Below are positions 34,656 through 38,467 of a DNA stretch of 64,000 nt, one piece after another. A model generated the notes under the pieces. It had not been told where the DNA came from, made no database searches, and saw only the letters and a program-made list of their open reading frames with translations. Made by a program: the position numbers and the translations under genes. This stretch comes from Candidatus Latescibacterota bacterium (GTDB lineage: Bacteria; Latescibacterota; UBA2968): contig OZ242195.1 of NCBI GenBank assembly GCA_965205975.1, forward strand, positions 3,904,001 to 3,968,000, in the 5' to 3' direction. Numbering within the stretch: position 1 is the first letter of the stretch; every line of letters begins with the position of its first letter.

Positions 34656-34662
34656 ACGCAAA

Positions 34663-34756
34663 GACGAATCAACGAATCAGCGAATCAGCGAATCGGGATT
34701 AGCACTGACTTTGGGTGGTTGGGCAGGGTTCGTCTATTCGTCTATTCGTCTATTCG
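34663..34756. repeat. Second copy of the opposing-8-mer composite element
   Basis: (cgaatcag)n - gactttgggtggttgggcaggg - (ttcgtcta)n. Confidence 0.85.
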
Positions 34757-34760
34757 CCCT

Positions 34761-36491
34761 TCACATCGCATTCTCCACCCGAGCCGTAATAACATCGATC
34801 CCCTCATACTTCCGATGATGCACCGATGAAGCGTAATGCCGCAAAAGCCGGATCGAAAACTCGTGATCATCCTCGGCATACGCATCCTCACCCAAATACG
34901 CGATCTGGTCTTCGATATTCTCGCCATCCGAAGCCGCCAGAAATTCAACCTCTGCTGCCCCATTATCCATGCGAATACCCATGATCAGTTGCCGCGGTGT
35001 ACTGGAAGATTCCTTTTCATCCTCAGTCACAAGACTCACCAGCATCTCTTCCCCTACCGAACGCAGGCGGTATTGCCCGCTCTCCGTCCAACCGTATTTC
35101 TCGGCAAACGCAACGAGAAACTCGTCAATCGCGGGCAATGCAGACAACTCCAGCGGCACTTGAATTTTTCTCCGCCGCGAACCGGTCAATTCCACCAAAA
35201 GCGTCATGCCAATAACCGTCAGGCTTCCCACCGTAACCCCGCTATTGAGCAACTCGCGCACAAACCCGTCAAAAAATCCAGCAATACTCCCAGAAGAAAG
35301 CCCAACCATTATCGATACCGCGATGACGATACTCTTGCGATGATCAATCTTATCATCTAACGCCACCTTTGCCCCTTCCACGAAAAGCCCGCCAAATACG
35401 ATGATATAGACAGCTGCCAGAACCGAACTCGGAATCGCAATGAGAAAAGCCCCCAACTTGGGCAAAAATGCCGCCCCGATCATAAACAACCCCATGTACA
35501 CACCCACCATCCGCGTAGCCACGCCTGTAAGAGAGACATACGTTGCAGTGAGTGCCCAGGGCGTCGTGGCAGAGGGAATGCCCAGAAAGCCCACGATCAA
35601 ATTGCCCACGGAGTAGGCATTGAGACCGCCTTGAACAACTCTGAAATCCTGTGCCTGTACCTCTCGGTGCGAAGCTCTTTGGATCACGCCAATATCCCCA
35701 ACAGCCTTCACAAAAGTCACCAAACCGACAAAGATAAAAGCCGGCAGAAGTCCCCAAAATTCAACGCCAAAGGTCAAATCCAAACCTTCCCAGACGGGAA
35801 CGGGAAAACCAATATAGGCAGCTTCGACCACACCGTTGTTATCGTACAACCCCAAAGGCACTGCGACAATCAGACCTGCCAAAATGGTGATACCGACTAT
35901 CCACAGCCGCCAGGTCTGTGGCGCACGCAAAATTATCAGTACCCCAACAAGCAAAGATATTGTCAGGGTCGCGATAACGCGATCAACGGGCAAATCCTGT
36001 GTCGATTTCACAACATCGTTAAACAGGAAGGGGGCTGCCGTAGCTGCGACCAACATCACAATTGTGCCACTGACGGTTCGCGTAAATATTCGGCGCAACA
36101 GCGGAAGGTACATCGTGAGCACCAACTGAACGAGCGTCGAGACAACGGTCAAAATCGCCAGCAAACCCGGTCCGCCTTTTTCTAAGGCAAGCGTAGAGAT
36201 CGCAATAAAAGGGATATTGAAACCCGTCAAAATGAGAAGTCCAGTCCCAATTCGACCACGGGAAGCCTGAATAATTGACGTGAATCCGCACGTTATCAAG
36301 GCCATAAACACGGCCCACGGCAAATAGGCCCCGGTCTCGCCCGATGATCGAATGACCACAGTCGTAAACACCACGACCATGACGATATTTGGCGATGCCA
36401 TCTGAACGGCAGAGAGTATGGCTACAGACCGGGGACATTTGTCCTCTGGTTCGTAGCGAATACCCTCATTTACCTGCCTGCCTGCCGCCAT
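34761..36491 (-). CDS. NCS2/NAT-family permease with a soluble C-terminal RsbW/SpoIIAB-like extension
   Basis: IRYEPED, GFTSIIQ..RIGTGL, AVGDI, TGVATR, PKLGA..AIP; last ~135 aa soluble with EEMLVSL...IRLLRHYASSVHHRK. Confidence 0.8.
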   Translation of the reverse strand: MAAGRQVNEGIRYEPEDKCPRSVAILSAVQMASPNIVMVVVFTTVVIRSSGETGAYLPWAVFMALITCGFTSIIQASRGRIGTGLLILTGFNIPFIAISTLALEKGGPGLLAILTVVSTLVQLVLTMYLPLLRRIFTRTVSGTIVMLVAATAAPFLFNDVVKSTQDLPVDRVIATLTISLLVGVLIILRAPQTWRLWIVGITILAGLIVAVPLGLYDNNGVVEAAYIGFPVPVWEGLDLTFGVEFWGLLPAFIFVGLVTFVKAVGDIGVIQRASHREVQAQDFRVVQGGLNAYSVGNLIVGFLGIPSATTPWALTATYVSLTGVATRMVGVYMGLFMIGAAFLPKLGAFLIAIPSSVLAAVYIIVFGGLFVEGAKVALDDKIDHRKSIVIAVSIMVGLSSGSIAGFFDGFVRELLNSGVTVGSLTVIGMTLLVELTGSRRRKIQVPLELSALPAIDEFLVAFAEKYGWTESGQYRLRSVGEEMLVSLVTEDEKESSSTPRQLIMGIRMDNGAAEVEFLAASDGENIEDQIAYLGEDAYAEDDHEFSIRLLRHYASSVHHRKYEGIDVITARVENAM

Positions 36492-36536
36492 GATTACATC
36501 CTCTAATATTGCGTGGTGCGAAAACGGTTAAAGCTA

Positions 36537-36567
36537 CTCATGGCTGCGCTTCAAACGCAGCCATGAG
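36537..36567. other. 12 bp-stem hairpin between the Cache and NCS2 genes
   Basis: ctcatggctgcg-cttcaaa-cgcagccatgag. Confidence 0.7.
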
Positions 36568-36607
36568 CGATGGAGTTTTGTCGCCTGCTAAGGCTTTTAC
36601 GAGCAAC

Positions 36608-38221
36608 TCAATCGTCCGCCGGTTCGCCAAAGTAGCTCGACCCGAAAATCAGACCATCGTAGCGAATCACCCATGCATGTGCATCCAGGATTACGCCGGT
36701 TCTCACGTTGGGCCGCTGGTAGTGAATCCAGTGCCCCTCCTCGGTCGCACGCACTATTTCTTTGCCAAGTTCAAATCCGGTGCTGGGTATCTTGACAACT
36801 TCGATGTTGAGACCCACCGCTCCGGGCGCAACGAGGAAGACAGCGATGCGGCCATTCTCGTCAATCAGGAACAGGGACGATTGGCCTTCGATGCTCTCCC
36901 GGCTGCTATAGTAGGCGACTGTAGCTTCCAGGCCCTCCTGTTTGTACTTGTCTATGGCAGCCTGCACGTATGCCTTAGTGCCCGCTTCGGGATTCTCCGG
37001 GGCAGGGTAATAGCCCGAAGCGAAAATCATCCCATCGCGCCGGATAGCGTAGCCCACCTTGGGAACCTCCGCCAGCGTCACCGGATGCGGCCACAGGTAT
37101 TCTACCCAAACACCCACGCCTTCCCCCGCCTTGACCAGCGCCTTGCCCAGTTCGTAGCCATCGGAACCCACCACATCCTTGAGGTCCGTGCCGATCAGTT
37201 TGGAAATCAGCGGGTGGACGTGATACATGTCGTCCGCGTCGGTGGCGAACAAATACCACTCGCCCTCAATGGAGGCCACGCTGTTGTAGTAGGCCTTCAT
37301 CGCCTCCAGGCCATCGCGCTCGTAGCGATCAATGGCCCGTTGCACGTACGCCTCGGTGTACTCCCTCGGGTCGGCACCCTGCCAGGACGGCGGTCCCGCC
37401 TCGATGTCCGAGGTGTAGTAGCCCGAGGCGAAGATCAGCCCGTCGTGGCGCACCACCCAGGCCGCCTTGTGTTCTTCCCGTAGTGTTACCGGATTCGGCC
37501 ACAGGTATTCCACCCAGTGACCTTCCTCAGTGGCTTGGGCGATTTCCTTGCCCAACTCTTGACCATCAGAGCCGACCACGTCCTTGATGTCCGTGCCGAT
37601 CAGGTGCGGGAAAATGGGATGTGCCAGGTAGAGATCATCGGCCCCGATGAGGAACAAATAAAAATGCCCATCCACGCTTTCCCGGCTGTTGTAATACGCG
37701 GTGGTCGCTTCCAGGCCCTCTCGATCGTAGTGCGCGATCGCTTTGGCGATGTAATTGCGGGTGACGTCGGCCAGATTTTCTTGCAACGTGAAATGCCCGG
37801 CCATGAAAACGAGATCATCGTGCCGAATGAGGAAGTTGCGCATGGGGCCTAACTGTCGGGTTCTGGGATGAATACCTTGATGATCCATCCAGATGCCTTC
37901 CGGAGTGACTGGACCGAGGGCGGGCGCGGGCGCACCGACGCGCGTGGATAAACCACTTGCCAGTATGATGCTTTGCTGCGGGTCAATGATAAGCATGAGC
38001 CGCTCGCCTTCGATACTTTCTCGGCTACTGTAGTATGCGAGTGTGGCTTCCCGGCCATCGCGCTGGTAACGCTCAATGGCCTTCATTACATAAGCTTTTG
38101 TGAGCGCATCCTCGTCATCGGCGGCCATCGCGGAAGAACTCGTGACCTGTGCATTACCACCAACCCACATCGCACCAGCCACCAGTGCCAACGCGAACAC
38201 GCGACAAATATCTCGAAACAT
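36608..38221 (-). CDS. Secreted protein made of four tandem single-Cache domains
   Basis: Signal peptide; 4 repeats of T..YV..AI..Y..EG.EAT.AYY.S..S..G...W..Y..P.P.T......DG.IF.SGYY; GGAGG RBS. Confidence 0.85.
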   Translation of the reverse strand: MFRDICRVFALALVAGAMWVGGNAQVTSSSAMAADDEDALTKAYVMKAIERYQRDGREATLAYYSSRESIEGERLMLIIDPQQSIILASGLSTRVGAPAPALGPVTPEGIWMDHQGIHPRTRQLGPMRNFLIRHDDLVFMAGHFTLQENLADVTRNYIAKAIAHYDREGLEATTAYYNSRESVDGHFYLFLIGADDLYLAHPIFPHLIGTDIKDVVGSDGQELGKEIAQATEEGHWVEYLWPNPVTLREEHKAAWVVRHDGLIFASGYYTSDIEAGPPSWQGADPREYTEAYVQRAIDRYERDGLEAMKAYYNSVASIEGEWYLFATDADDMYHVHPLISKLIGTDLKDVVGSDGYELGKALVKAGEGVGVWVEYLWPHPVTLAEVPKVGYAIRRDGMIFASGYYPAPENPEAGTKAYVQAAIDKYKQEGLEATVAYYSSRESIEGQSSLFLIDENGRIAVFLVAPGAVGLNIEVVKIPSTGFELGKEIVRATEEGHWIHYQRPNVRTGVILDAHAWVIRYDGLIFGSSYFGEPADD

Positions 38222-38411
38222 AACAACCTCCCTTGTAAAATGGCTTTCTCTGCGAATACTGCGAATACGGAAAAAATAAGGTAAAATATTTCTCTTGCAA
38301 TATAAAAGCGCAGAGGCTCTGGAAGCACCTGTTTTTTTATCAATCCATCTTCACAGTGAACTGGTCTGAACTGCGACCAGTCATGCTCGATTTACTCCCC
38401 TTCATACACCG

Positions 38412-38465
38412 TTCCCTACTTCACACTTCCTACTTCACACTTCCTACTTCACACTTCCTACTTGC
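38412..38465. repeat. Heptamer tandem repeat (cacactt/cctactt)
   Basis: Same family at about 20808-20835, 26557-26583 and 19636-19660. Confidence 0.85.
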
Positions 38466-38467
38466 CT

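Follow-up and report, generated by a model that had tools for sequence, protein, structure and literature searches.

What does an exported protein built of Cache sensor modules do next to a membrane carrier fused to a domain of anti-sigma kinase descent? This question is raised by a 64,000-nucleotide stretch of the genome of a Candidatus Latescibacterota bacterium (GenBank assembly GCA_965205975.1, contig OZ242195.1, positions 3,904,001 to 3,968,000; hereafter, the window). Here, two genes on the minus strand encode an exported 537-residue protein of four sCache_2-type modules (36608..38221; open reading frame (ORF) call, Pfam, family hidden Markov model (HMM) and AlphaFold) and a 576-residue NCS2-fold carrier with a pseudo-RsbW tail (34761..36491; ORF call, Pfam and profile). 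The two ORFs are 116 bp apart and each is preceded by a Shine-Dalgarno-like purine run; the carrier gene lies directly downstream of the Cache gene on the same strand, as stated in an earlier interpretation made from the letters alone (hereafter, the sequence-only reading). The pair is real and conserved. We give about even credence to the view that it is a binding-protein-assisted carboxylate carrier with a regulatory tail that docks a STAS protein.

Gene linkage and co-occurrence were established directly in a set of 402 genomes, 151 of Latescibacterota and 251 of Dehalococcoidia; an initial search of related contigs with one protein gave six loci, and the counts come from the genome set instead. 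The tailed NCS2 family (at least 267 matches) is represented in 60 of the Latescibacterota and 44 of the Dehalococcoidia genomes. The 100 stretches taken comprised every copy with a high score, two loci of orphan Cache genes, loci with a nearby Cache match, and a selection made by hand from across the remainder. The window carrier belongs, in a tree of 109 membrane cores, to a 17-row clade that is marked by the motifs K-x-x-G-D and PW and has a support of 100 in the Shimodaira-Hasegawa approximate likelihood ratio test (SH-aLRT). By coordinates, a Cache cassette gene lies within 1 kb of the carrier in all 18 genes of this clade, among them a carrier interrupted by an insertion element and a frameshifted copy that the tree omits. 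In the other direction, 22 of the 26 four-module cassette genes have a clade carrier within 3 kb, and both genes are held by the same 18 of the 402 genomes. The arrangement is tandem in six Latescibacterota and divergent in 12 Dehalococcoidia genomes, and the linkage persists across this change. Chance adjacency of the two genes was rejected; they travel together, as the sequence-only reading, which had named co-occurrence as a check, anticipated. No third gene was seen to recur across the Latescibacterota and Dehalococcoidia neighborhoods.

Some copies of the locus are rearranged. The Cache gene stays adjacent both where the carrier is split by the insertion element (L027:10076-13043, genome G067) and where it is frameshifted (L028:9778-11548, genome G073). 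At four Dehalococcoidia loci (L016, L017, L018 and L021), two or three different tailed NCS2 paralogues surround the Cache gene, together with genes for TauD, a luciferase-like monooxygenase and DUF1330.

The Cache protein starts with a predicted signal peptide (approximately residues 1-33; 38123..38221, from sequence), without a lipobox cysteine in this copy. The peptide is followed by module 1 (residues 38-151; 37769..38110), module 2 (residues 152-272; 37406..37768), module 3 (residues 283-410; 36992..37375), and module 4 (residues 411-533; 36623..36991), all on the minus strand. The AlphaFold model (22 alignment rows; predicted local distance difference test, pLDDT, 78.8) consists of four units, each with two helices and a five-stranded sheet, and four modules are also recovered by a repeat HMM, which is partly circular because it was built on the protein's own family. 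Pfam detects just two sCache_2/dCache_2 stretches (PF17200 above the cut-off), and self-BLAST finds no internal repeats, which are visible only by profile and model. The single hydrophobic stretch is N-terminal, and Pfam and hydrophobicity reveal neither a C-terminal transmembrane helix nor an output domain. The model and family HMM agree with the initial description of an exported protein made only of four Cache repeats, without an output domain. The accompanying claim that there is no membrane anchor applies to this copy, with its missing lipobox cysteine, and not to the family, in which many homologues are lipoproteins.

Across the family, we compared 120 listed Cache homologues of 840 found, 83 of the 120 with exactly four modules. 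An N-terminal hydrophobic stretch is present in 106 of the 120 and a lipobox in at least 43 (by a crude pattern), and none has a later transmembrane helix, which matches the expectation for a solute-binding protein. The window copy represents a short form without the lipobox that is common to several clusters, and longer homologues carry the lipobox and about 120 extra residues. In the ESM Atlas, Cache-only clusters were seen in several phyla, which is a lead only.

The best single-domain structure matches of the modules are sCache_2 sensors (4k08, 4exo, 2qhk and 5g4y). As described in the part of the PscD report consulted (PMC5062169), the carboxylate contacts of this sensor are Tyr90, His103, Tyr143 and Lys156, with the ligand sandwiched by two Trp residues. 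In the 4k08 alignment, the counterparts of these contacts are Y188/H201/Y239/K252 for module 2 and, for module 3, Y323/H336/Y375/K388, each with intact flanking aromatics (F190 and W241, and F325 and W377, respectively); in modules 1 and 4, as delimited by HMM and model, the carboxylate motif is lost. All 83 four-module homologues have the full Y-H-Y-K set in modules 2 and 3, and none has it in modules 1 or 4. Homologues with eight and 12 modules are repeats of the same degenerate-intact-intact-degenerate cassette. From these motifs, modules 2 and 3 are predicted to bind a small carboxylate.

The two degenerate outer modules could be docking surfaces, in which case the four-Cache protein would be an auxiliary subunit that is bound constitutively and modulates the folding, stability or gating of the carrier in the manner of the multi-Cache alpha2-delta subunit of calcium channels, with the ligand as an allosteric gate and not as delivered substrate. 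Alpha2-delta and Cachd1 are among the Foldseek matches, but only through shared Cache folds (TM-scores of about 0.12-0.15). A fixed docking surface, however, should be conserved, whereas the outer modules 1 and 4 are the least conserved part of the protein, and module number across the family varies from 2 to 12. We regard such a subunit as very improbable.

The carrier comprises an NCS2 membrane core (residues 10-436; 35184..36464, minus strand) and a cytoplasmic tail. Pfam PF00860 matches residues 25-399 with 101 bits against a cut-off of 27, and the family profile matches UapA (E 2e-44), UraA and SVCT1; the scores of the carrier do not reach the NCBIfam cut-off of either ncs2 or pbuX. Compared with UapA and UraA, the QH of transmembrane helix 1 (TM1) is replaced by QM, the Glu of TM8 by Lys262, and the NAT signature Q-N-x-G by L-T-x-T, so that the TM10 motif reads P-W-x-L-T-x-T. 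The losses in TM1 and in the NAT signature had been spotted from the sequence alone and stand in the UapA comparison; the TM8 change had not been mentioned. By alignment, the Lys262 codon (35706..35708, minus strand) occupies the position of UraA Glu241 and UapA Glu356. According to the consulted portion of PMC5539350, UraA Glu241 and Glu290 touch uracil, and Glu241 together with His245 has been proposed to mediate proton coupling.

The predicted pocket consists of Q30-M31, N92, K262, D266, P311-W312, T315 and E372. Among 120 listed carrier homologues of 1068 found, K262, D266, P311, T315 and Y318 are present in all 120, and N35, N92 and E372 in 118; this near-invariance of the new pocket residues fits selection on the pocket rather than decay. 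Position 262 covaries with position 372 in TM12 (K-E in 28 and E-Q in 39 of the 109 rows). Because the nucleobase contacts are replaced, a nucleobase appears an unlikely substrate, and an anion is plausible as judged from these motifs. An ordinary nucleobase carrier, considered as a candidate, was rejected, the substrate contacts being lost. In the full-length carrier model (27 rows), the membrane core is poor (mean pLDDT 46), and the pocket geometry was for this reason taken from alignments only. A complex prediction of the carrier core with the Cache protein (score 0.00, mark 0.32) weighs neither way.

Within the carrier model, confidence is confined to the tail (residues 437-576; 34764..35183, minus strand), where pLDDT is mostly 62-84, with a low-scoring loop at 523-546. 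The ten best Foldseek matches are all RsbW, UsfX or SpoIIAB chains, and VIA, with top matches to the same kinases, yields Z-scores of 14.1-14.9 with a root-mean-square deviation of 1.9-2.6 Å over 103-121 residues (for Z 14.9, 2.0-2.4 Å over 114 residues), compared with Z of about 7-8 for unrelated rows. The degenerate SpoIIAB/RsbW HATPase fold proposed previously is thus confirmed. A profile of 60 tails aligned to eight local RsbW proteins with 67% probability (hhalign, E 5e-5), with a Trp and the EE of the N box kept. In the same motif, the Asn position is Ser486 (Ser in 108 and Asn in eight of the 120 listed homologues), and the G1 DxG and G2 GxG boxes, both kept by the local RsbW proteins, are absent. 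With the N-box Asn, G1 and G2 lost, ATP binding by the tail is not expected; by motif, the tail is a pseudo-kinase, and an active kinase was rejected on the same grounds. Beyond the tails, the tail HMM matches only local RsbW proteins in the fetched loci; the RsbW of the window's own genome is matched at a non-significant E of 0.43. Look-alikes of the tail in the ESM Atlas are hypothetical proteins of 134-140 residues, with one cluster at 15% HATPase_c_2 (leads only).

Does the tail depend on the Cache partner, or the partner on the tail? Among the 90 tailed NCS2 rows outside the window clade, a Cache gene lies directly upstream in seven, a number for which the choice of stretches enriches, and none lies within 1 kb in the other 83. 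The seven all belong to one 10-row Dehalococcoidia group, have Cache genes with two to four modules, and mostly retain the TM8 Glu. Three further tailed paralogues are encoded in the window's own genome, which has no other Cache gene of the same kind; no canonical tail-less NCS2 was found in it with the core HMM. These paralogues (C1:2713196-2714914, 4204011-4205717 and 714631-716352) have different pocket motifs, and one is located beside a polyketide synthase gene.

The pairing takes its simplest form at L006:5534-7861, a two-gene operon of Cloacimonadota in which a tail-less NCS2 with a TM8 Lys is encoded 10 bp behind a two-module Cache lipoprotein. In 151 Cloacimonadota genomes, all 10 best matches to this carrier are directly behind the best matches to the lipoprotein (the genomes with the tail-less pair include G438, G522, G482, G434, G484, G545, G465, G494 and G524). 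Eight of nine close metagenome loci of the tail-less NCS2 are also behind a Cache gene, the ninth having no upstream DNA. A tail of at least 110 residues is present in 119 of the 150 nearest representatives of this carrier. Approximately unbiased (AU) tests, run on quick trees with long branches after the trees had been inspected, reject joining the window clade with either the second tailed group or the tail-less group (p 0.0003 and 3e-36). Judging from these sequences, the Cache-NCS2 pairing either had several origins or is ancient and has frequently been lost. With a tail-less lineage that has a Cache partner and most tailed NCS2s without one, partnership with Cache and possession of a tail appear to be distinct traits.

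The reading that we favor takes the following form. Modules 2 and 3 of the exported Cache protein would bind a small carboxylate; held or delivered by that protein on the outer side of the carrier, the carboxylate would be imported through the remodelled NCS2 pocket. The tail, RsbW-like but dead, is taken to be an older trait of the whole family; its docking partner would be the short STAS protein from a STAS / REC-SpoIIE / RsbW module at another place in the genome, and the phospho-state of this switch would tune the carrier. Folds and motif states were observed directly; from them and from the linkage, we infer the ligand class, the contact of the two proteins, transport, and the docking of STAS and its direction.

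Several observations weigh against this reading. Four of the 26 cassette genes are orphans, and the clade genomes represent essentially two lineages, so that the counts are not independent. No NCS2 carrier of established function is known to require a binding protein. Neither a weak search of 7999 candidates for longer forms nor other limited searches turned up a Cache-NCS2 fusion. On the side of the pocket, Lys262 may be partly neutralised by a salt bridge with Glu372, as the covariation suggests, and the fit of a Lys to a carboxylate is not exclusive to the pair: a Lys or Arg at the TM8 position is also present in 117 of the 150 nearest representatives of the tail-less carrier, which are distant relatives, and in 23 sister rows without an adjoining Cache gene. 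Free poly-Cache proteins are encoded in 57 of the 251 Dehalococcoidia genomes, and none of 20 further poly-Cache copies from this group has an NCS2 gene within about 4 kb, nor does any transporter family recur among their nearest neighbors; carrier partnership is therefore not the general role of the family. Finally, in a survey of Cache domains, consulted in part (PMC4822843), there are 2243 sCache_2 sequences against about 1920 with a counted output domain (summed over Table 1), so that Cache proteins lacking an output are no rarity in databases; the same part names SMP_2 alone as an exception.

Several candidates or groups examined along the way are set apart from this balance. Lys262 was dropped as a marker of Cache pairing, since a Lys or Arg occurs in unpaired rows and the second paired lineage keeps the Glu. 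P0270, an NCS2 fragment joined to SpoIIE, was set aside as a possible chimera because its last helices are missing and it contains a stretch of what is presumably translated sequencing adapter. A Cache HMM matched none of the 150 representatives near the tail-less NCS2. The 20 poly-Cache loci (L158-L177) encode exported proteins of two to five modules, many with collagen-like or Pro/Thr linkers, and three are beside a gene for the lipoprotein transacylase Lit.

The orphan cassette copies and the 20 of 20 more distant poly-Cache genes without an NCS2 neighbor would also suit two co-regulated, physically independent genes, with the Cache protein as a periplasmic or surface ligand buffer, or a partner of some other receptor, and the carrier working alone on the same compound. 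Shared regulation is further suggested by the divergent orientation of all 12 Dehalococcoidia copies. Nevertheless, the pair is not accompanied by any common regulator or enzyme gene, and the tight adjacency extends to three NCS2 lineages that are rejected as one clade, with the gap shrinking to 10 bp in the tail-less lineage. Independence of the two proteins thus seems to us quite improbable.

The tail directs attention to partner switching. A STAS / REC-SpoIIE / RsbW module flanks other tailed NCS2 genes at several loci, frequently along with genes for a Peripla_BP_6 binding protein and a HAMP kinase. In the window's own genome, such a module (C1:5440382-5446093) comprises STAS (a short protein, C1:5440394-5440705), REC-SpoIIE, RsbW, Peripla_BP_6-like and HAMP-kinase-like genes, with no sigma gene among the plus-strand ORFs listed; it is a candidate for the partner switch of the tails. 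In Dehalococcoidia, an RsbW-type match was detected in all 44 genomes with a tailed NCS2 (in 40, to a close stand-alone form) compared with 12 of the 207 without, a contrast that is inflated by kinship. STAS matches are present in all 17 other clade genomes and in the window's own genome.

If the tail is an output, the pair could be a split receptor, or transceptor, in which the loaded Cache protein docks on an NCS2 that changes conformation but transports little or nothing, and the tail binds or releases STAS and thereby gives input to the partner switch. In other settings, Cache domains act as the inputs of receptors, according to the consulted part of PMC4822843. Several features of the family point the same way, namely, conservation of the tail while the pockets diversify across paralogues, loss of the canonical proton-coupling Glu, the N-terminal GAF domain of P0333, a distant tailed NCS2, and an operon (L147) that joins a tailed NCS2, free Cache proteins, a dCache_2-HAMP-SpoIIE-HATPase_c_2 protein, and STAS. 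However, the tail-less NCS2 lineage keeps its Cache partner, so that pairing needs no output domain, and most tailed NCS2s have no Cache neighbor. Moreover, the surroundings of the window clade show no recurring gene for a switch protein, sigma factor or regulator, and the genome's own module is about 1.5 Mb from the pair. We consider a split receptor unlikely. A broader version, which strikes us as similarly doubtful, is a split chemoreceptor assembled from three reused parts, with the Cache array as input, NCS2 as transducer, and a dead anti-sigma kinase as an output that sequesters STAS, so that paralogues with different pockets feed one switch; if so, the tailed NCS2 family would be an unrecognized receptor class. 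The sequence-only reading had offered a split receptor or a binding-protein-assisted transceptor that imports the ligand or signals through the tail. Its binding-protein-assisted half is the one favored here; signaling through the tail is not specifically supported, given the 83 of 90 other tailed rows without Cache and the tail-less lineage that keeps it in 10 of 10 cases.

Three loci or proteins deserve separate description. L147:350-9529 (Cloacimonadota) contains, in addition to the operon genes named above, free dCache_1 and sCache_2 genes and two solute-binding protein genes. At L146:561-5469, a tailed NCS2 is clustered with a membrane protein of dCache_2-HAMP-SpoIIE-HATPase_c_2 architecture and with a STAS protein. 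P0333 (829 residues) combines the GAF domain with the NCS2 core and the tail in a single polypeptide.

The RNA runs with close relatives of the pair are mostly labelled as sponge metagenome. In two of four runs, the intergenic gap is spanned by contigs with about 94-95% identity to the window (X1, 36038-37211; X2, 35648-38078); as the contigs show neither strand nor a single transcript, this is weakly consistent with co-transcription. In the same runs, a 19.5-kb control stretch is represented in short pieces only and xerD is mostly uncovered, a contrast that ranks nothing because the runs were picked for holding the pair.

The pair is flanked by genes for an Xaa-Pro peptidase and an xerD-type recombinase. 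Between the two ORFs is a 15-pair hairpin without a U-tract (36536..36568, minus strand; z -2.86), which is also found in four close relatives and has no further copy elsewhere in the genome. Upstream of the Cache gene (38350-38467) are short tandem heptamer-like repeats with about 40 matches elsewhere in the genome. A short dispersed repeat lies in the gap past the carrier gene (34656-34760); by BLAST it has about 300 matches in the genome, and it is also abundant in RNA contigs. A scan for promoters and terminators gave output at chance level.

Should the favored reading be correct, the pair would add a fourth binding-protein-assisted uptake route to those through ABC (ATP-binding cassette), TRAP (tripartite ATP-independent periplasmic) and TTT (tripartite tricarboxylate) transporters, the binding-protein users named in the consulted part of PMC8050422. 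Cache domains would then serve as transport binding proteins, and an NCS2/SLC23 carrier would have shifted from nucleobases to a small acid. The pairing occurs in at least three NCS2 lineages and in three phyla, including sponge-associated bacteria with poorly known carbon sources, and the tail suggests that a sigma-factor-type partner switch can act on, or listen to, a carrier. In the literature covered, which included few subscription papers and no supplements, we found no description of a Cache-NCS2 pair or of an anti-sigma-type NCS2 fusion; the word "fusion" is absent from the main text, the part consulted, of the NAT/NCS2 classification paper (PMC6308229).

The components of the pair each resemble known systems and depart from them. 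The Cache modules share with sCache_2 chemoreceptor domains (PscD, 5g4y; Adeh_3718, 4k08; Vibrio, 4exo/2qhk) the fold and, in modules 2 and 3, the Y-H-Y-K set with flanking aromatics; they differ in being four in tandem, two of them degenerate, in an exported or lipid-anchored protein that is linked to a carrier and lacks flanking transmembrane helices and an output. Cache receptors in general (methyl-accepting chemotaxis proteins, histidine kinases, diguanylate cyclases and SpoIIE proteins) have the Cache domain between two transmembrane helices and a cytoplasmic output, neither of which is present here. By profile and PF00860, the carrier belongs with UraA, UapA and SVCT1 of the NCS2/NAT (SLC23) family, whose fold has 14 TM helices; as read from the alignments, it differs from them in the replaced TM1 His, TM8 Glu and TM10 Q/E-N-x-G, in its 140-residue tail, and in its linked, putative binding protein. 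The tail has the HATPase_c_2 (Bergerat) fold, Trp and EE of the RsbW, SpoIIAB and UsfX kinases, but it is fused to a carrier, its ATP boxes are gone, and no sigma gene is seen nearby.

As a whole, the pair is likely a kind of binding-protein-assisted secondary transport, akin by analogy to TRAP and TTT but a member of neither. The shared logic would be that of an exported binding protein serving an ion-driven carrier. The parts are different: a PAS-like Cache array instead of a Venus flytrap, NCS2 instead of DctM or TctA, and no small membrane subunit gene seen; Pfam and NCBIfam detect only Cache and NCS2 in the pair, with no DctP/TctC or DctM/TctA. The closest parallel to the tail is in SLC26/SulP transporters, which share the 7+7 carrier fold with NCS2, as stated in the consulted parts of PMC5539350 and PMC6308229. 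Both carry a cytoplasmic domain derived from a partner switch, with SulP having the STAS (antagonist) half and the carrier described here the kinase-fold half.

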